Below are positions 14,809 through 58,495 of a stretch of DNA of 64,000 nucleotides, one piece after another (position 1 is the first letter of the stretch; every line of letters begins with the position of its first letter). Source of the DNA: Thermoplasmata archaeon UBA61 (lineage in GTDB: Archaea > Thermoplasmatota > Thermoplasmata > Lutacidiplasmatales > UBA184); contig DASW01000003.1 in the NCBI GenBank assembly GCA_002503985.1, positions 221,394 to 285,393 of the forward strand, read 5' to 3'. The notes beneath the pieces are model-generated. The model was not told the DNA's origin, did no database searches, and worked only from the letters and a program-made list of their open reading frames with translations. A program made the translations under genes and the position numbers.

Positions 14809-14994
14809 AACCGTCCGCTCCGGCCCGTGGAGGGCATCGGCCGCTTAACGGTTGGGGAGTTCGACCGGTCCGGCGGAGCGAGCGCGACCGTCCGTCGCTC
14901 TACGCGCGCGTCCGATGCCGTACGAAGCGTCGCGTCGGTTTTCGAGGAGAAACACCGCTCTCTGACGGTCCCGGACCTTCGCGCGCGCGAGCGC

Positions 14995-15001
14995 TTATAT
15001 A
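14995..15001 (+). promoter_or_regulatory. TATA box (TTATATA) upstream of the ribosomal-protein operon (L3)
   Basis: GC-rich BRE-like stretch plus TTATATA about 50 nt before the L3 ATG, within the 243-nt divergent intergenic region. Confidence 0.4.
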
Positions 15002-15051
15002 GGGCACCCTTCTCCCCCGCCCGCACCGGAGGCAGGACCTCCTATCGACCC

Positions 15052-16053
15052 ATGGCTCGACGGCATCGCCCGAGGCGAGGATCCCTCGCATTCTCCCCCC
15101 GCTCCCGGGCCGTGAGGCCCGTTCCGAGGGTCCGTTCTTGGGCTCCCGGAGCGAAACCGGTCGCGATCGAGGGATTCGCCGGCTTCAAGGTCGGCATGAC
15201 CCACGCCTTCATTGTGGATTACCGCAAGCGGTCGACCACCGCGGGCCAGGAAGTATCCATCCCCGTGACCGTGGTCGAGGTCCCCCCCCTGCGGGTCGTA
15301 GCCGCCCGCCTGTACGCGCGCAACCCCTACGGCGCGCGCGTCGTCTCCGAGGTCTGGGCGACCGGCCTGGCGGAGGAGCTCTCGCGGCGGATCCCGAAGC
15401 ACCCCGCGAGCCCACCCGAGGCCCTCGAGGCGTTCGGGAAGGCCCCAGGGGACGAAGTGCGCCTCATCGTCCACACGCAACCGCAGCTCATCACCGGGAC
15501 CGGTTCGAAGACGCCCAACCTGTTCGAGGTCCGGGTCTCGGGAGACAAGTTCGACGAGCGTCGGGCCTTCGCGCTCGAGCAGCTCGGCCAGGAGGTCCCC
15601 GCCGACCGGCTGACCAAGGAAGGGGAGTTCCTGGACGTCATCGGGGTCACCAAGGGGTTCGGGTTCCAAGGCCACATCCAGCGGTGGGGCGTGAAGCTCC
15701 AGCCCCGCAAGAACTCGAAGCACCGGAGGATGATCGGAACCCTCGGACCCCACAATCCGAGCTTCGTCACCTACCGGATCCCCCAGGCCGGCCAGCAAGG
15801 CTACCACCGCCGCACCCAGTTCAACATGCGGGTCCTCAAGATCGTCCGTGACCCGCGCGCGGACCCCATCACGCCCGCCGGTGGGTTCCCGCACTATGGA
15901 GAGGTCCAGAGCGCGTGCATCGTCCTCCACGGCTCGCTTCCTGGGCCCGCGAAGCGTCTTCTGAGGTTCCGCGCCCCGATGCGGAGCCACGTCACCTCGG
16001 TCGAGAAGGTCGACCTGCGCTACTTCAGCACCCGTTCGAAGCAGGGAGCCTGA
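15052..16053 (+). CDS. rpl3: 50S ribosomal protein L3 (uL3)
   Basis: Starts MARRHRPRRGSLAFSPRSRA, the typical archaeal L3 N-terminus. The in-frame upstream part of the 14617..16053 ORF was rejected. Confidence 0.93.
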   Translation: MARRHRPRRGSLAFSPRSRAVRPVPRVRSWAPGAKPVAIEGFAGFKVGMTHAFIVDYRKRSTTAGQEVSIPVTVVEVPPLRVVAARLYARNPYGARVVSEVWATGLAEELSRRIPKHPASPPEALEAFGKAPGDEVRLIVHTQPQLITGTGSKTPNLFEVRVSGDKFDERRAFALEQLGQEVPADRLTKEGEFLDVIGVTKGFGFQGHIQRWGVKLQPRKNSKHRRMIGTLGPHNPSFVTYRIPQAGQQGYHRRTQFNMRVLKIVRDPRADPITPAGGFPHYGEVQSACIVLHGSLPGPAKRLLRFRAPMRSHVTSVEKVDLRYFSTRSKQGA

Positions 16054-24884: not shown

Positions 24885-25408
24885 GCACCGGTCCTCGCTA
24901 TCGTGTCCACTTCCGCCGACGGCGGGAGGGGAAGACCGACTACCGCGTCCGGCTCCGTCTCCTCAAGAGCGGAACCGCTCGCGCGGTCGTCCGCTTCTCC
25001 GGTCGTCGGGTCCGTGTCTCGATCGTCCAGTACGACCCCGTCGGCGACCGGGTCGTCGCGGTGGCGGAGAGCGCGGAGCTCGCCCGGGTCGGCTTCCCCG
25101 CGTCCAGTTTCTCGTCCACCCCGGCGGCCTACCTGACGGCGTACCTCGCCGGCCTTCGTTCGAAGTCCGCGGGCGCCGAATCGGCCGTGCTCGATACGGG
25201 CATCCGCCACCCGACCGAGGGCGGTCGGCTTTCGGCCGCGCTCAAGGGGCTGCTCGACTCGGGCGTCCACGTCCCCCACGGAGAGGGGGGCTTCCCGAGC
25301 GCCGAGCGTCTGAACGGCGCGCACCTCCCGAAGCCCTTGCCTCAGCCCCTCGAAGCGTACAAGATGAAGCTCCCCGATATCGTCCCGCGGGCGGAGGCCA
25401 AGCCGTGA
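24881..25408 (+). CDS. rpl18: 50S ribosomal protein L18 (uL18)
   Basis: FRRRREGKTDYRVR motif. Confidence 0.9.
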   Translation: MSTGPRYRVHFRRRREGKTDYRVRLRLLKSGTARAVVRFSGRRVRVSIVQYDPVGDRVVAVAESAELARVGFPASSFSSTPAAYLTAYLAGLRSKSAGAESAVLDTGIRHPTEGGRLSAALKGLLDSGVHVPHGEGGFPSAERLNGAHLPKPLPQPLEAYKMKLPDIVPRAEAKP

Positions 25409-26265
25409 GCGGCTCCTTCTCGGGTCCGTCGCGCGGAGGCTTTGGGGGCGCCCCCGCGGCGCCACCTCCCTGGGTGCCGAAGACCGAGCTCGGCCGGCGG
25501 GTCGCCGCTGACGAGATCACCACCATGGCCGCCGCCATCGAGAGCGGCCTTCCGCTGCGGGAGCCCCAGATCGTCGACAAGCTCCTCCCCGGTCTCCACG
25601 ACGAGGTGCTGGACGTGAACATGGTCCAGCGCATGACCGACTCGGGCCGCCGGTTCAAGTTCGCTGTCACGGTCGTCGTCGGCAACGGCGACGGGTTCGT
25701 CGGCCTCGGACGGGCGAAGGGCCGCGAGGTCGGCCCGACGATCCGCCGCGCGATCGACCGCGCGAAGCTCGAGGTCGTCGAGGTCTACCGGGGCTGCGGC
25801 AGCTGGGAATGCGGCTGCGGCCGGGCACACACGCTTCCGTTCCAGGTCAAGGGACGCGTCGGCTCGGTGGTCGTGACGTTCAAGCCCGCCCCGCGAGGGG
25901 TCGGCCTCGCGGTCGGCGATGTGGCGAAGCCGATCCTCCGGTTCGCCGGCATCACGGACGCCTGGGGCTTCACGGACGGACACACGAAGACGACCGTGAA
26001 CTACGCCCAATCCGCCTTCCAGGCGCTGGTCGCCCTCTCCGAGCTCAAGGTCCCCGCCGAGGATTCCTCTCGTCTCAAGATCGTCCGCGGGCCTGTCGGG
26101 ACCTCCATCCTGCCGCCCAAGGACGAGAACGCTCCACGCCCGATCCGCGGAGGCCGAGGCGGCCGCGGTCGGCGCCCGCCGATGCGCGGCGGGGGACCGG
26201 GACGCGGCGGACCCGGAGCGCCCCGGGGCGGTCCGCCCCGCCCGGCGCCGCCGAGGGGGAACTGA
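25405..26265 (+). CDS. rps5: 30S ribosomal protein S5 (uS5) with C-terminal Gly/Arg-rich (RGG-like) extension
   Basis: S5 core (dsRBD plus the C-terminal domain) followed by RGGRGGRGRRPPMRGGGPGRGGPGAPRGGPPRP. Confidence 0.9.
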   Translation: MSGSFSGPSRGGFGGAPAAPPPWVPKTELGRRVAADEITTMAAAIESGLPLREPQIVDKLLPGLHDEVLDVNMVQRMTDSGRRFKFAVTVVVGNGDGFVGLGRAKGREVGPTIRRAIDRAKLEVVEVYRGCGSWECGCGRAHTLPFQVKGRVGSVVVTFKPAPRGVGLAVGDVAKPILRFAGITDAWGFTDGHTKTTVNYAQSAFQALVALSELKVPAEDSSRLKIVRGPVGTSILPPKDENAPRPIRGGRGGRGRRPPMRGGGPGRGGPGAPRGGPPRPAPPRGN

Positions 26266-26267
26266 GC

Positions 26268-26726
26268 ATGGCCTGGATGATCGTCCGGGTCCGCGGCTCC
26301 ATCCACGCTCGGCACGACGTGGTGGAGACCCTGAGCTACCTCCACCTCACGCGGCCGAACCACGCCACGGTCGTTCCCGAGCTGCCCTCCGTCCGTGGGA
26401 TGCTGACGGTCGTCCAGGGCTACGTCACCTGGGGCGAGGCCGAACCCGAGACCGTGTCGCTGCTCCTCCAAGAACGCGGCGAGACCGCGGCCGGAGCGCG
26501 GTTGACGGCCGAGACCGTCACCGAGATCGCCCCGGGGAAGGACCTTCCCGCGATCACGCGCACCGTCGCCGAAAAGGGTCTCACCCAGGTTCAGGGCTTG
26601 AAGCCGCTCTTCCGCCTCCGGGCTCCGAAGGGAGGCTGGCGGTCAACCAAGAAACCGTTCACTCTCGGCGGCGCGCTCGGGTACCGGGGCCGCGCGATCA
26701 ACGAGCTCGTCCGCCGGATGATGTGA
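26268..26726 (+). CDS. rpl30: 50S ribosomal protein L30 (uL30)
   Basis: Starts MAWMIVRVRGS, 2 nt after the S5 stop. Confidence 0.85.
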   Translation: MAWMIVRVRGSIHARHDVVETLSYLHLTRPNHATVVPELPSVRGMLTVVQGYVTWGEAEPETVSLLLQERGETAAGARLTAETVTEIAPGKDLPAITRTVAEKGLTQVQGLKPLFRLRAPKGGWRSTKKPFTLGGALGYRGRAINELVRRMM

Positions 26727-26739
26727 GGGACGGTCGATC

Positions 26740-27192
26740 ATGCCGAGTCGCACACGGAAGTTCCGCGGTTTGAGGACCCACGGCCGGGGCATCAAGGCCG
26801 GCCGCGGCGCCGGAAAGCAGGGAGGGAGGGGCAACGCGGGACTTCACAAGTACAAGTTCAAGTCGATGCTCATCTACGCTCCCGACCATTTCGGCCGCCA
26901 CGGGTTCAAGCGGCCGTTCCAGATCGTCGAGCGCCCGACCAGCCTGAACGTCGGGGAGCTCGAGGCGTTCCTGCCCCACCTCGAGGCGGCCGAGGCGCTG
27001 TCCCGGGAAGGGAGCACGTTCGTCGCGGACCTCACGAAGGCGGGCGTTGACCGGCTGCTGGGCGGCGGGGTCACGACGCACCCGTGGAAGGTCGTCGTCC
27101 GACACGCGTCGAAGCACGCCCGCGAGAAGGTGACGGTCCTGGATGCCCGCCCGGGCGGCGCAGCGGAGGCGCCTCCGAAATCCGTCCCGTAG
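26740..27192 (+). CDS. rpl15: 50S ribosomal protein L15 (uL15)
   Basis: 150 aa. Confidence 0.9.
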   Translation: MPSRTRKFRGLRTHGRGIKAGRGAGKQGGRGNAGLHKYKFKSMLIYAPDHFGRHGFKRPFQIVERPTSLNVGELEAFLPHLEAAEALSREGSTFVADLTKAGVDRLLGGGVTTHPWKVVVRHASKHAREKVTVLDARPGGAAEAPPKSVP

Positions 27193-27194
27193 AC

Positions 27195-27201
27195 TATATA
27201 A
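27195..27201 (+). promoter_or_regulatory. TATA box (TATATAA), positioned for a (near-)leaderless secY transcript starting at ATG 27229
   Basis: 27 nt separate the box from the ATG. Confidence 0.4.
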
Positions 27202-27228
27202 CTCGCGTACCGGCTCCGAGACGACCTC

Positions 27229-28992
27229 ATGGCGGAAGAGGAGACCCCACGAGACCGCCGTTGGGCGGTCCCGCTCACCCTCATCCCCGCCGGGATCCTC
27301 GCGCTGTTCTGGTTCTGGGGCCGTCCGACCCTCATCGCGTTCGGTCTGCTCGTGGCGGCGATGGCCGCCATCTTCACGATCTTCTACCTCGGCCTTTCCT
27401 ACAACGGCTCCCGCTCGATGCTGTACGGGCTCAAGCCGCTCACGACCCGGATGCCGGCGGTCACTCAGCCGAAGGGCCACGTCCACTTCCGGACGAAGCT
27501 GTTCTGGACGCTCGGGATCCTGCTCCTCTACTTCCTGCTGACGAACATCTACCTGTTCGGCGTTGACCAGCTGACCGTCATCGACCTGTTCCACAGCTAC
27601 CGCGCGATTCTCGCCGGGGCGCAAGGCACGCTCATGCACCTCGGGATCGGCCCGATCGTCACCGGGTCGATCATCATGCAGCTGTTCACCGGCGCGAAGA
27701 TCATCAACCTCGACCTCACCGACGACGAGGACAAAGGGGTCTACCAGGGGACTCAGAAGGTCATCGTCGTCGCGATGATCTTCATCGAGGCGATCCCCCA
27801 GGTCTACGGCTACCTCTCCCCCTCGGGTTCCCTCGTCTCGAGCCTCGGGACCATCTCCCCCGGCAACGGCCTCCTGCTCGCGAACGTCATCATCATCGCC
27901 CAGCTCGTCTTCGGCAGCTACCTCGTCTTCCTGATGGACGAGGTCGTCTCGAAGTGGGGGATCGGGAGCGGGATCTCGCTGTTCATCGCCGCGGGCGTCT
28001 CGCAGCAGATCGTCCAAGGTACGCTCAACTGGGTGCCGGGGAATCCCGGGCCCGTCACGGCGCAGAATCCTCCGAGCGGAGCGATCCCGAAGACGCTCTG
28101 GTTCTTCTCCCACTACACCGCGAGCCAGATGGCCGGCGGGGGCTGGGAGCAGGTCCTGTTACGACAGCCGAACCCGCTGGTCGCGCTCGTCGGCACGGCG
28201 GCGATCTTCTTCCTCGTGGCGTGGACCGAGTCGACGCGCATCGAGCTCCCGCTCTCGCACGCCGAGGCGCGGGGCGCCCGCGGCCGCTACCCGCTCCGCC
28301 TGATCTACGCGTCGAACATCCCGGTCATCCTGATGTCGGCGTTGCTCGCCAACGTCTCGATGGTGACGATCCTTTTGTGGACCAACCCGACGCTGATCCA
28401 CTTCCCGGTCCTCGGCCACCAGTGGTGGATCGGGGCGTACCCGACCGCGACCCAAGCGACGTTGTTAGGGGTCAGTCAAACGACCCCGATCAGCGGCGGC
28501 GCGTATTACCTCTCGACGGTCAACGGCCTCGAGGCTTGGCTGTTACCGATCCTGAACTACCAGGAGTACGGTGGGTTCCTCGTCGGCCACGCCTGGTGGC
28601 AGGGCTTGCTCCACGTGGCGGTCTACTTCGGCGCGATGGTCGGTGGGTCGATCCTGTTCGCCAAGTTCTGGATCCAGACGACCAACATGGGCCCGGAGGC
28701 CGTCGCGCGCCAGATCGAAGCGTCCGGCATGCAGATCCCCGGCTTCCGTAGAGAACCCCGGGTGTTGCGCCGGGTCCTCGAACGGTACATCCCCGTGATC
28801 ACCGTCATCTCGGGGGCCGCGGTCGGCGCGCTCGCCGCCGGGGCGGACCTCATCGGTACCTTAGGGAATGCCTCCGGAACCGGTGTCCTCCTGATGGTCG
28901 GGATCATCATCAACCTCTACCAGGCGATGGGCCGCGAACAGCAGATGGAGATGAACCCGCTCCTGCGTCGGTTCCTCGGAGGCGAGTCCTGA
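27229..28992 (+). CDS. secY: preprotein translocase subunit SecY, with N-terminal 63-aa extension (two predicted TM helices)
   Basis: The canonical SecY N-terminus (MLYGLKPLTTRMPAVTQPKGHVHFRTKLFWT...) begins at the internal Met at 27418. The upstream 63 aa are in frame and hydrophobic. Confidence 0.88.
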   Translation: MAEEETPRDRRWAVPLTLIPAGILALFWFWGRPTLIAFGLLVAAMAAIFTIFYLGLSYNGSRSMLYGLKPLTTRMPAVTQPKGHVHFRTKLFWTLGILLLYFLLTNIYLFGVDQLTVIDLFHSYRAILAGAQGTLMHLGIGPIVTGSIIMQLFTGAKIINLDLTDDEDKGVYQGTQKVIVVAMIFIEAIPQVYGYLSPSGSLVSSLGTISPGNGLLLANVIIIAQLVFGSYLVFLMDEVVSKWGIGSGISLFIAAGVSQQIVQGTLNWVPGNPGPVTAQNPPSGAIPKTLWFFSHYTASQMAGGGWEQVLLRQPNPLVALVGTAAIFFLVAWTESTRIELPLSHAEARGARGRYPLRLIYASNIPVILMSALLANVSMVTILLWTNPTLIHFPVLGHQWWIGAYPTATQATLLGVSQTTPISGGAYYLSTVNGLEAWLLPILNYQEYGGFLVGHAWWQGLLHVAVYFGAMVGGSILFAKFWIQTTNMGPEAVARQIEASGMQIPGFRREPRVLRRVLERYIPVITVISGAAVGALAAGADLIGTLGNASGTGVLLMVGIIINLYQAMGREQQMEMNPLLRRFLGGES

Positions 28993-29843
28993 TGAGCGGG
29001 GACGGAAAGCCGTTGCCCTCCGCGGCGGACGTCGCCGCCGAGCCCCTTCCCACAGGCGGAGGAGCCGAGCCCGAGGAGCCGGAGGAGGCCCCGGCGAGCG
29101 AGGAGGCCGAGCCCAAGCCCGCCGCTCGTCCGGCGCGGCCCCCGCCCGCTCCCTTCAAGATCTCGACCTTCGTCTACGTGTTCCTCGGCCTCCTCGGCCT
29201 GTGGATGCTCATCGACTCGAGCGCACGGAACTCGATCGCCGGTCTGCTCGGGACGGGTCCCGGTACTCCGGGACCGCTCTACTGGTTGATCGGGTTCAAC
29301 TCGGACTACCTTCTCCTCACGATGGCGCTCGCCGGCGCAATCGAGATGTTCGTCACGTCGGTCGCGTACAACTACACGACGAACTGGATCAAGGCCGCGA
29401 AGGTCCAGAAGTGGAGCTCGGCGTTCCGCAAGGTGCAGATGGAGGCGATCCGCTCCGGCAAGAAGGACCGGATCGCGGCGCTCAAGCCCCAGCAGGAGAA
29501 GCTCACCCGGCTCTCGGGCGAGGTCTCGATCGCGCAGTTCAAGGGGATGGCGATCACCTACTTCCTGCTCATCCTGATCTACTCGTGGGTCGGGCTCACG
29601 ATTTCGGCCGCGAACGTGGTCCAAAAGACGGTCAGCTTCGGCACGGGAAGCTCGGTCGTGCTGACCAGCACCGTCGGGAGCCTGCCGATCCCCATCTGGT
29701 TCATCATCTTCAGCCTCTACACGGTGCCGTTCTCGCTGGTGTTCCGCCGGGTACTGAAGGACTACTGGCTTCGGAGGTACGCGAACGAACACCACATCGC
29801 GCCCTTCGCCCCCGGCCCGCCACCGGCCGGGGGGTTGGTGTGA
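28992..29843 (+). CDS. DUF106 family membrane protein (archaeal Oxa1/YidC-like insertase homolog)
   Basis: TM and coiled-coil architecture at the canonical post-secY position, with an acidic/Pro-rich N-terminus. Confidence 0.65.
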   Translation: MSGDGKPLPSAADVAAEPLPTGGGAEPEEPEEAPASEEAEPKPAARPARPPPAPFKISTFVYVFLGLLGLWMLIDSSARNSIAGLLGTGPGTPGPLYWLIGFNSDYLLLTMALAGAIEMFVTSVAYNYTTNWIKAAKVQKWSSAFRKVQMEAIRSGKKDRIAALKPQQEKLTRLSGEVSIAQFKGMAITYFLLILIYSWVGLTISAANVVQKTVSFGTGSSVVLTSTVGSLPIPIWFIIFSLYTVPFSLVFRRVLKDYWLRRYANEHHIAPFAPGPPPAGGLV

Positions 29844-40607: not shown

Positions 40608-40615
40608 TTATATAT
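40608..40615 (+). promoter_or_regulatory. TATA box (TTATATAT) 25 nt upstream of the epimerase ATG (leaderless)
   Basis: Canonical spacing. Confidence 0.4.
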
Positions 40616-40639: not shown

Positions 40640-41626
40640 ATGACGGACCGTCCCCTCGAGGGGCCTGTGGTCGTCACCGGCGGGGCGGGCGCGATCGGTT
40701 CCGTTCTCGTCCGATCGCTGCTCGAACGCGCGAGCGAGGTGCGGGTCATCGACAACCTCTCGAGCGGTCGTCGGGAGCACCTCACCCCCGGTCCTGGGGG
40801 CAAGAAGGCCCTCCTGACCGTGGCGGACCTGAAGAACCCGGCCTCCTACGCGGACCTCTTCCGCGACGCGTCGGCCGTGTGGCACCTCGCGACGAACCCG
40901 GACATCCGCAAGGGGATGTCCGACCCCCGCCTCGACCTCGAGGAGGGAACGGTAGCCACCTTCCACGTCCTCGAAGCCGCCCGACGCCATGACGTCCCTC
41001 GCGTGGCGTTCTCCTCCTCGAGCGTGGTCTACGGGCTCGCGACGGTCTTCCCGACCCCCGAGGAGTACGGTCCGCTCCAGCCCCAGTCCCTCTACGGGGC
41101 GGCGAAGCTCGCCGCGGAGGGACTCCTCACGGCCTACGCTCACTCCTACGGGCTGACGGTCCACATCTTCCGGTTCGCGAACGTGATCGGGCCCCACATG
41201 ACGCACGGGATCCTCCCGGATTTCTTCGACAAGCTCCGCCGCGACCCGACCCGCCTCGAGATCCTCGGGGACGGGCGTCAATCCAAGAGCTACCTCCGTA
41301 CCGAGGACTGTGTCGCCGGGATGCTCCACGCGACCGAGCGCTCGCGCGACCGGGTGAACGTCTTCAACCTTGGAGCGGTCGACCAGATCTCCGCGCGGGA
41401 GATCGGCGAGAAGGTGGTCGCGGCCCACGGCAGCCGCGCCCGGATCGAGTACACGGGCGGGGAACGCGGCTGGGCCGGGGACGTCCCCCTCCAGCTCCTC
41501 TCGATCCGACGGATGCAGGCGCTCGGCTGGGAACCTCGATGGAACAGCGCCCAGGCGGTCGACCAGGCCATCGCGGAGCTGGTCGAGGCTCGCGGCGTTC
41601 GCACCGGAGCCGGACCCGGCACCTAG
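40640..41626 (+). CDS. NAD-dependent epimerase/dehydratase (UDP-sugar 4-epimerase family, SDR)
   Basis: TGGAGAIGS Rossmann motif and YGAAK catalytic motif. 328 aa from ATG 40640 within the longer ORF. Confidence 0.8.
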   Translation: MTDRPLEGPVVVTGGAGAIGSVLVRSLLERASEVRVIDNLSSGRREHLTPGPGGKKALLTVADLKNPASYADLFRDASAVWHLATNPDIRKGMSDPRLDLEEGTVATFHVLEAARRHDVPRVAFSSSSVVYGLATVFPTPEEYGPLQPQSLYGAAKLAAEGLLTAYAHSYGLTVHIFRFANVIGPHMTHGILPDFFDKLRRDPTRLEILGDGRQSKSYLRTEDCVAGMLHATERSRDRVNVFNLGAVDQISAREIGEKVVAAHGSRARIEYTGGERGWAGDVPLQLLSIRRMQALGWEPRWNSAQAVDQAIAELVEARGVRTGAGPGT

Positions 41627-58487: not shown

Positions 58488-58495
58488 GTATATAG
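58488..58495 (+). promoter_or_regulatory. TATA box (GTATATAG) 25 nt upstream of the 58520 ATG (leaderless)
   Basis: Canonical spacing. Confidence 0.35.

Follow-up and report, generated by a model that had tools for sequence, protein, structure and literature searches.

SecY and Sec61-alpha are among the most conserved membrane proteins, and their ten-helix architecture is treated as universal. Here we describe a secY gene, carried on a 64,000-nucleotide (nt) stretch of DNA from the soil organism Thermoplasmata archaeon UBA61 (the window; G+C content about 69%), that encodes a single SecY with 12 transmembrane (TM) helices, and we find this 12-TM protein conserved among related archaea. The open reading frame (ORF), at 27229–28992 on the plus strand, which also holds all other secY features given below, specifies 587 amino acids (aa): a 63-residue N-terminal hairpin of two TM helices, followed by a canonical SecY core of 524 aa with its plug and ten TM helices (27418–28992, closing with the stop codon TGA at 28990–28992). 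We consider it very probable that this 587-aa protein is the one product of the gene, that it is made from a promoter of its own and that the hairpin acts as a peripheral accessory module of the channel, although we only infer the last two of these, the expression and the function. A sequence-only reading of the window had pointed to the extension, and the positions it gave for the TATATAA box, the ATG at 27229 and the internal ATG at 27418 were all exact when the window was read again.

First, the extension is present throughout the clade to which this genome belongs, the order Lutacidiplasmatales (terrestrial miscellaneous euryarchaeotal group, TMEG), described as having 2.1-Mb genomes of about 69% GC (PMC9287336), in agreement with the composition of the window. 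All 120 best database homologues carry it (82–90% identity, mostly 588 aa and deposited as ‘Thermoplasmata archaeon’), and public annotation labels these long proteins ‘preprotein translocase subunit SecY’. In a genome scan that took one genome per GTDB species, 57 loci, among them UBA184 and Candidatus Lutacidiplasma silvani, match residues 1–587 at 71–92% identity with no stop or frameshift. Homologues of the clade thus carry the extension and do not uniformly start at the methionine of the MLYGLKPL motif at the head of the core, the outcome that the sequence-only reading had named as a refutation.

Second, the residues of the extension are conserved as those of a protein, as seen in 55 full-length species-level sequences. 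P7, R8, P33, S57, Y58, G60 and S63 are invariant, and W12, W28, W30, T34, L54, G55 and L56 are nearly so. Substitutions inside the two hairpin helices exchange one hydrophobic residue for another; Pro20 is peculiar to this genome, with Gly at that position in 38 of the 55 relatives. The internal methionine, Met64 (27418–27420), from which the sequence runs MLYGLKPL...PKGHVHFRTKLFWT, is not a conserved start: its position holds Lys or Arg in 52/55 relatives and Met in only 2/55, so that a short form beginning there cannot be the conserved product. The 120 database homologues likewise have Lys or Arg at this point (...SRS-K/R-LYGLKP).

Third, the pattern of substitution is that of coding sequence. 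Across the aligned loci, the third-codon-position wobble in conservation begins exactly at ATG 27229. Nei–Gojobori means between the window and each relative give proportions of nonsynonymous and synonymous differences (pN and pS) of 0.30 and 0.45 for the extension; the corresponding core values are 0.10 and 0.40. In comparisons with the three closest genomes, the ratio of nonsynonymous to synonymous substitution rates (dN/dS) is 0.20–0.31 in the extension and 0.10–0.15 in the core. Column entropy is 1.34 bits in the extension and 0.51 bits in the core, and G+C at third codon positions (GC3) is 87% and 93%, respectively. These substitution patterns show that the extension encodes protein and that purifying selection acts on it, with a constraint about three times weaker than on the channel.

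These comparisons bear directly on whether the frame is simply over-extended, that is, whether the true start is ATG 27418 and the 63 codons upstream stand open by chance in GC-rich DNA. The secY frame is open from 27202, just past the TAA of the TATA box, which is an in-frame stop, to the TGA at 28990–28992. At 69% GC, with only about 2% of random codons being stops, the chance of the resulting 72 open codons upstream of Met64 is about 23%, and the canonical SecY N-terminus does start near residue 60–65. The open frame alone is therefore not beyond chance, and the observation rests on the comparative evidence. With Lys or Arg in place of Met64 in nearly all relatives, invariant residues and constant length of the extension in 57 species, a coding-type periodicity of conservation that starts at 27229, and neither a Shine–Dalgarno sequence nor a promoter or TATA signal in the window sequence in front of 27418, we regard an over-extended frame as almost certainly wrong. 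A second possibility is that this particular genome makes two isoforms, the long one from 27229 and a short canonical SecY from Met64, given that it is one of only two among the 55 with a methionine there. That methionine is a single-codon change from Lys or Arg with nothing else changed locally, no Shine–Dalgarno-like sequence or promoter element lies upstream of it, and the short form is impossible for any relative; we think two isoforms very improbable. On this evidence the extension is real and the long 587-aa form is the real protein, and the start at ATG 27229 favoured by the sequence-only reading holds.

Fourth, the long form has a conserved promoter in front of it. The stop codon of the uL15 gene, TAG at 27190–27192, abuts the promoter core (27193–27201), which consists of AC and the TATATAA box at 27195–27201 and lies directly 3′ of that stop; a 27-nt spacer of fixed length and variable sequence (27202–27228) then leads to the start codon. 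The heptamer is rare, with 10 matches at one mismatch or fewer in the 64 kb of the window, both strands counted, against 2.8 expected. When upstream DNA at the 57 loci was aligned on the conserved N-terminus, the sole strongly conserved block 5′ of the ATG was (T/C/A)AGAC-TATATAA, at −39 to −28 in 43 loci. Its (T/C/A)AGAC part is purine-rich and stands 5′ of the TATA box, where an archaeal transcription factor B recognition element (BRE) would be. The distance from the end of the box to the start codon is 26–29 nt in 43/57 loci and exactly 27 nt in 33 of them. Within the otherwise variable spacer, an element G-G-n-T(-C) at −17 to −13 (27212–27216) is kept in 43 related loci.

An archaeal TATA box is centred about 26–27 nt upstream of the transcription start. 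The fixed spacing between box and ATG, combined with this usual distance, argues for a leaderless or near-leaderless mRNA and would place the transcription start within the last approximately 5 nt before the ATG, at about 27223–27229. The spacer contains no GGAGG, so that what is found at the locus is a TATA box with an element at the BRE position and without a Shine–Dalgarno sequence, the arrangement of an archaeal leaderless transcript. The geometry recurs at two further genes of the window, with boxes at 40608–40615 and 58489–58495 and start codons at 40640 and 58520. Of the claim that secY has its own TATA box 27 nt upstream of 27229 and yields a leaderless transcript, the box and its spacing are borne out and kept across relatives; the leaderless or near-leaderless mRNA is well supported at the level of sequence.

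Initiation signals differ within the clade, where the N-terminus does not change with them, and beyond it. In deep clade members (L041–L044, L047, L048 and L052), the box lies 37–44 nt upstream, GGAG(G) is present and some starts are TTG or GTG, and yet the same N-terminus is encoded, which indicates that the extension can be translated under more than one mode of initiation. By these upstream signals, leadered and leaderless initiation appear to have switched within one clade. In relatives that lack the hairpin (L058–L080), by contrast, there is no TATA box before secY; a Shine–Dalgarno sequence falls within the L15 gene, at its 3′ end, and only a few nt separate the stop codon of that gene from the secY ATG, an arrangement that indicates operon-coupled translation of secY. 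Because the TATA box is missing from these relatives, the dedicated secY promoter is a feature of the Lutacidiplasmatales clade.

Beyond the hairpin, the protein is an ordinary SecY. Pfam assigns residues 99–133 to the plug (PF10559, 43.3 bits, cut-off 22.1) and residues 134–564 to SecY (PF00344, 226.4 bits, cut-off 32.2), and the NCBIfam archaeal SecY equivalog NF006341 aligns residues 65–584 to positions 4–463 of its 464 at 324.2 bits (cut-off 300). In Foldseek comparisons, an AlphaFold2 model of the protein matches Sec61 and SecY structures in the PDB with E values of 3e-23 to 1e-20 and target-normalised TM-scores of 0.78–0.85, over alignments of about 510 columns that span the core only and leave the hairpin outside; the core is thus predicted to have the 10-TM pseudo-symmetric channel fold with its plug. 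SecY and Sec61-alpha chains in the PDB start aligning at query residues 60–69, with their own residues 2–9. For residues 1–63 there was no Pfam or NCBIfam match above threshold, the best being DUF6249 at 17.6 bits against a cut-off of 33. Since structures, Pfam and NCBIfam all begin past the hairpin, the first roughly 63 residues are additional to every described SecY. With 12 predicted TM helices instead of the canonical 10, and without the canonical short N-terminus before TM1, the protein departs from SecY in architecture, not in family membership. The core itself contains an insertion of about 55 aa (residues ~408–463, at ~28450–28617) that does not align to SecY of Pyrococcus furiosus or Methanocaldococcus jannaschii and has short predicted strands nearby.

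The hairpin divides into five parts. The start codon opens a cytosolic N-terminal motif, MAEEETPRD (27229–27255), with the consensus M-A-[DE]-E-E-I-P-R-[DN]. The first extra TM helix, residues 10–31 (RRWAVPLTLIPAGILALFWFWG; 27256–27321), is marked out by conservation, TM count and AlphaFold2; a three-residue extracellular turn, R-P-T (residues 32–34; 27322–27330), by conservation and AlphaFold2; and the second extra TM helix, residues 35–56 (27331–27396), by hydrophobicity and AlphaFold2. A cytosolic juxtamembrane motif, S-Y-x-G-x-x-S (residues 57–63; 27397–27417), again supported by conservation and AlphaFold2, joins the hairpin to the core. On Hessa-type and Kyte–Doolittle scales, no 19-residue segment of the protein is more hydrophobic than residues 34–52 (summed dG −2.49, Kyte–Doolittle mean 2.45), and residues 12–30, with a Kyte–Doolittle mean of 1.71 by hand calculation, were tallied as a second TM segment.

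An AlphaFold2 run on close homologues only reached a predicted local distance difference test (pLDDT) score of 43.9 and was replaced by one on a diverse alignment of 95 sequences, with a mean pLDDT of 75.4 and a predicted TM-score (pTM) of 0.71. In this model, helices 10–31 and 35–56 have pLDDT values of 81–88, with three residues forming the turn between them; the invariant P-R and S-Y motifs are linked through residues 8 and 58, which make an isolated beta-bridge; and the hairpin is followed by the usual amphipathic helix (64–74) and then SecY TM1 (87–105). Hydrophobicity and AlphaFold2 therefore agree on the two hydrophobic helices that the sequence-only reading had seen. It had also supposed that extra N-terminal TM helices would alter translocon topology. 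From solved structures, the SecY N-terminus is established as cytosolic, and this location together with the even number of added helices makes the extension an N-in/C-in hairpin that keeps the topology of the core. The conserved positions cluster at the two cytosolic ends and in the outer turn with its Trp, Pro and Thr, whereas the interiors of the helices vary.

We propose the following course of expression and arrangement of the protein. Transcription would begin at the TATA/BRE-type promoter set on the L15 stop codon, with the start a few nt before ATG 27229 and no Shine–Dalgarno sequence needed. The acidic and basic N-terminus (MAEEETPRDRRW) would stay in the cytosol, helix 10–31 would cross outward and helix 35–56 would return inward, leaving a very short Trp-flanked turn (W-F-W-G-R-P-T) at the outer surface. 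On the cytosolic face, the invariant S-Y-x-G-x-x-S motif would pair with the invariant N-terminal P-R, and the ends clamped in this way would lie beside the N-terminal amphipathic helix of SecY, with normal TM1 beginning about 30 residues past the hairpin in its normal N-in orientation. The hairpin would then be a peripheral, built-in accessory membrane module, outside the conducting pore, with the task of anchoring or positioning the cytosolic N-terminal part of SecY; it may also make the complex more stable or present a surface for docking. A peripheral role is suggested because the hairpin evolves fast, its interiors are constrained only to be hydrophobic and sister lineages dispense with it.

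A more specific version of this role, in which the hairpin is a built-in translocon subunit that occupies the peripheral site of Sec61-beta or SecG, or to which an Oxa1-type insertase docks at the back of SecY, is possible but rather unlikely in our estimate. E. coli SecE TM1–2 are dispensable, and SecG and Sec61-beta are peripheral subunits; Sec61-beta has one C-terminal TM helix and SecG the opposite orientation. Extra peripheral helices of this kind, outside the pore and dispensable in some lineages, offer a working analogy only: they are separate polypeptides (or part of SecE) and have no sequence similarity to the hairpin.

Several points weigh against the accessory-module reading or parts of it. 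For distant pairs, dN/dS of the extension nears 1; we attribute this to saturation and to synonymous sites compressed by a GC3 near 90%, but it also shows weak constraint on the hairpin. A conserved packing stripe on the hairpin helices was considered and dropped, as conservation in the two helices has no helical periodicity (no peak near 100 degrees), which argues for loose, lipid-exposed helices over a tightly packed interface. A leaderless mRNA would follow from the box spacing, and read-through from the ribosomal-protein operon may be an additional source of secY mRNA.

Where the hairpin came from can be addressed through its distribution. In the genome scan, 22 species representatives, from Methanomassiliicoccales, RBG_16_67_27 and others (61–66% identity), match only from residue ~60; their N-termini read MAEEKKSxLYxLKP, MPLEEKKKSRLYALKP or MVEEGKSKLY. 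Searching 1.84 billion representative proteins with a profile built from the extension gave 12 matches. Ten were read, and these comprise fragments from the N-terminus of SecY, chimeras or frameshifted pieces, and divergent full-length SecY proteins with E values of 4e-5 to 5e-4 (P0129–P0132); the other two are long multi-stretch matches (P0126, 4090 aa, and P0128, 1881 aa) that resemble hydrophobic-repeat matches. A search seeded with P0132 recovered many lineages of 567–592 aa with a two-TM N-terminus of 60–74 aa, as well as hairpin-less SecY proteins of 513–536 aa. M1 and R8 are retained in every hairpin lineage and A13, Y58 and G60 almost throughout, with the common signature R-[ND]-x-x-x-A-[IV]-P ... 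[ST]-Y-x-G-[ED]-x-S-K-L-Y-G-L-K-P and an outer loop of 3 to ~20 residues. Two hairpin-bearing loci come from genomes of 45–47% GC and likewise lie directly after L15. By these sequence matches, a homologous hairpin is found in many divergent Thermoplasmata SecY lineages and is not confined to Lutacidiplasmatales.

In a neighbour-joining tree of the core, whose deep nodes are unreliable, hairpin-bearing and hairpin-less proteins are interleaved, which suggests either an old origin of the hairpin with several losses or several gains. The sequences on either side of the hairpin (MAEE... and ...KSxLYxLKP) are also present in the proteins without it, and this places the difference inside the N-terminal tail of SecY: on alignment, the hairpin would formally be an insertion or deletion a few residues past the initiator methionine, not a recruited upstream ORF.

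The sequence-only reading had raised the possibility of a fused small membrane partner, a once-independent protein such as Sec61-beta, SecE or a SecG-like subunit joined to SecY. The hairpin does look autonomous, being a two-TM unit with its own conserved ends, and it is missing from related SecY proteins. Among the ten profile matches read, however, none is a stand-alone homologue. A profile of diverse hairpins, run in a word-indexed search of a collection of 5.8 billion clusters, found only 4 SecY fragments among 620 candidates, a set too small to tell how many SecY proteins bear the hairpin. In the 22 hairpin-less genomes, all six frames of the DNA within 3 kb of secY were searched and yielded nothing (best E 0.13, with positive controls at 1e-31 to 1e-35). 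The hairpin has no Pfam or NCBIfam match to Sec61_beta, SecE or SecG (PF03911, PF00584 and PF03840 were the models concerned), and it has the form of a two-TM hairpin instead of the single C-terminal anchor of Sec61-beta or the amphipathic helix and TM helix of SecE. The flanks common to hairpin-less relatives fit an insertion or deletion within the tail. Fusion of a separate protein therefore looks quite improbable, and no stand-alone relative that would speak for it came out of the library searches or from beside hairpin-less secY genes. In the window, no credible small TM ORF for Sec61-beta or SecE was found. One of the four fragments comes from a metagenome-assembled genome (L084, 1431–2066) in which SecY codon 69 alone has changed, from AAG to TAG, while the remainder of the gene stays in frame. 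The change probably reflects faulty assembly or variation within the population, and it accounts for a 68-aa database entry that looks like a ‘stand-alone hairpin’.

An origin by internal duplication of SecY helices was also considered and rejected, BLASTP and hhalign comparisons of hairpin and core having returned nothing significant. The hairpin turn W-G-R-P-T-L-I-A-F (27316–27342) does weakly resemble core residues 384–392, W-T-N-P-T-L-I-H-F (28378–28404); this 12-residue WxxPTLIxF match, at E 0.03–0.05 and an hhalign probability of 1%, is not significant.

Downstream of secY lies a gene for an EMC3/TMCO1-like membrane protein of the Oxa1 superfamily (DUF106; 28992–29843, plus strand), whose ATG overlaps the secY stop codon as TGATG and whose first ~55 residues form a Pro/Glu/Ala-rich low-complexity tail. 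YidC/Oxa1 insertases typically act on hairpins whose translocated loop is short, and the loop here is very short. The hairpin might thus be a biogenesis aid, a substrate of the neighbouring Oxa1/YidC-type insertase that tethers the nascent SecY–ribosome complex and is perhaps later cleaved, and the overlap of the two genes would suit such a role. The adjacency of secY and the DUF106 gene is found in 53/56 loci of the hairpin clade; it also occurs in 10/22 hairpin-less relatives and is missing from the hairpin-bearing L081 and L083, so the presence of this neighbour does not follow that of the hairpin. The hairpin shows no evident cleavage motif, and the conserved motifs at its cytosolic ends suggest a role in the folded protein. 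We judge a biogenesis aid unlikely, and favour a lasting accessory module of the assembled SecY.

Set against known systems, residues 64–587 are orthologous to canonical archaeal SecY/Sec61-alpha (M. jannaschii SecYE-beta, 1RHZ; P. furiosus SecY, 3MP7), with the plug and 10-TM core, and the canonical gene is likewise placed after that for L15. The UBA61 protein differs in its 63 extra N-terminal residues with two TM helices and in the lineage-specific insertion noted above. A second comparison is the hairpin-less SecY of Methanomassiliicoccales-like Thermoplasmata, in which the core is 61–66% identical and both flanks are shared, but hairpin and TATA box are absent and the Shine–Dalgarno sequence sits in the L15 3′ end. 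The promoter, with its TATA box, BRE-position element, 27-nt distance from box to ATG and lack of a Shine–Dalgarno sequence, resembles those of leaderless mRNAs in Haloferax and Sulfolobus, in which TATA lies ~26–27 nt upstream of the transcription start; unlike in those, the transcription start is inferred here, and some deep clade members use a longer leader with a Shine–Dalgarno sequence and TTG or GTG. A SecY N-terminal hairpin is not mentioned in the full-text literature searched, which leaves most subscription journals outside, or in the account of the order (PMC9287336), and apparently has been undescribed so far.

The gene stands at the end of an archaeal ribosomal-protein cluster of spc type (S5–L30–L15–SecY), the genomic position expected of secY, with uS5 at 25405–26265, uL30 at 26268–26726 and uL15 at 26740–27192 on the plus strand. 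Each end of the 286-aa uS5 protein is drawn out into a Gly/Arg/Pro-rich, RGG-like tail, and that at the C-terminus is ...GGRGGRGRRPPMRGGGPGRGGPGAPRGGPPRPAPPRGN. As to other promoters in the window, TTATATAT lies 24 nt upstream of ATG 40640 and TATATAG 24 nt upstream of ATG 58520, both of leaderless type; at 14994, TTATATAG is followed by GGAGG and ATG 15052 (14994–15054), a leadered arrangement.

A conserved 12-helix SecY across a large archaeal group, together with close relatives that lack the hairpin, offers a natural comparison with and without the added helices, and one that bears on the part played by peripheral helices in channel stability, assembly and partner docking. The hairpin is relevant to annotation as well as to translocon specialists: trimming starts to the ‘canonical’ SecY N-terminus would be wrong for genomes that carry it, and, SecY being a common phylogenetic marker, its presence or absence is a cheap character for Thermoplasmata lineages. 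The locus also records a switch between two ways of expressing secY: operon-coupled and Shine–Dalgarno-led in the relatives without a hairpin, and from a dedicated promoter of leaderless type in Lutacidiplasmatales. If the hairpin should prove to be a built-in subunit, large parts of Thermoplasmata would run a 12-TM, ‘self-contained’ translocon, and its repeated gain or loss among sister lineages would be a natural experiment on the accessory helices of the channel.

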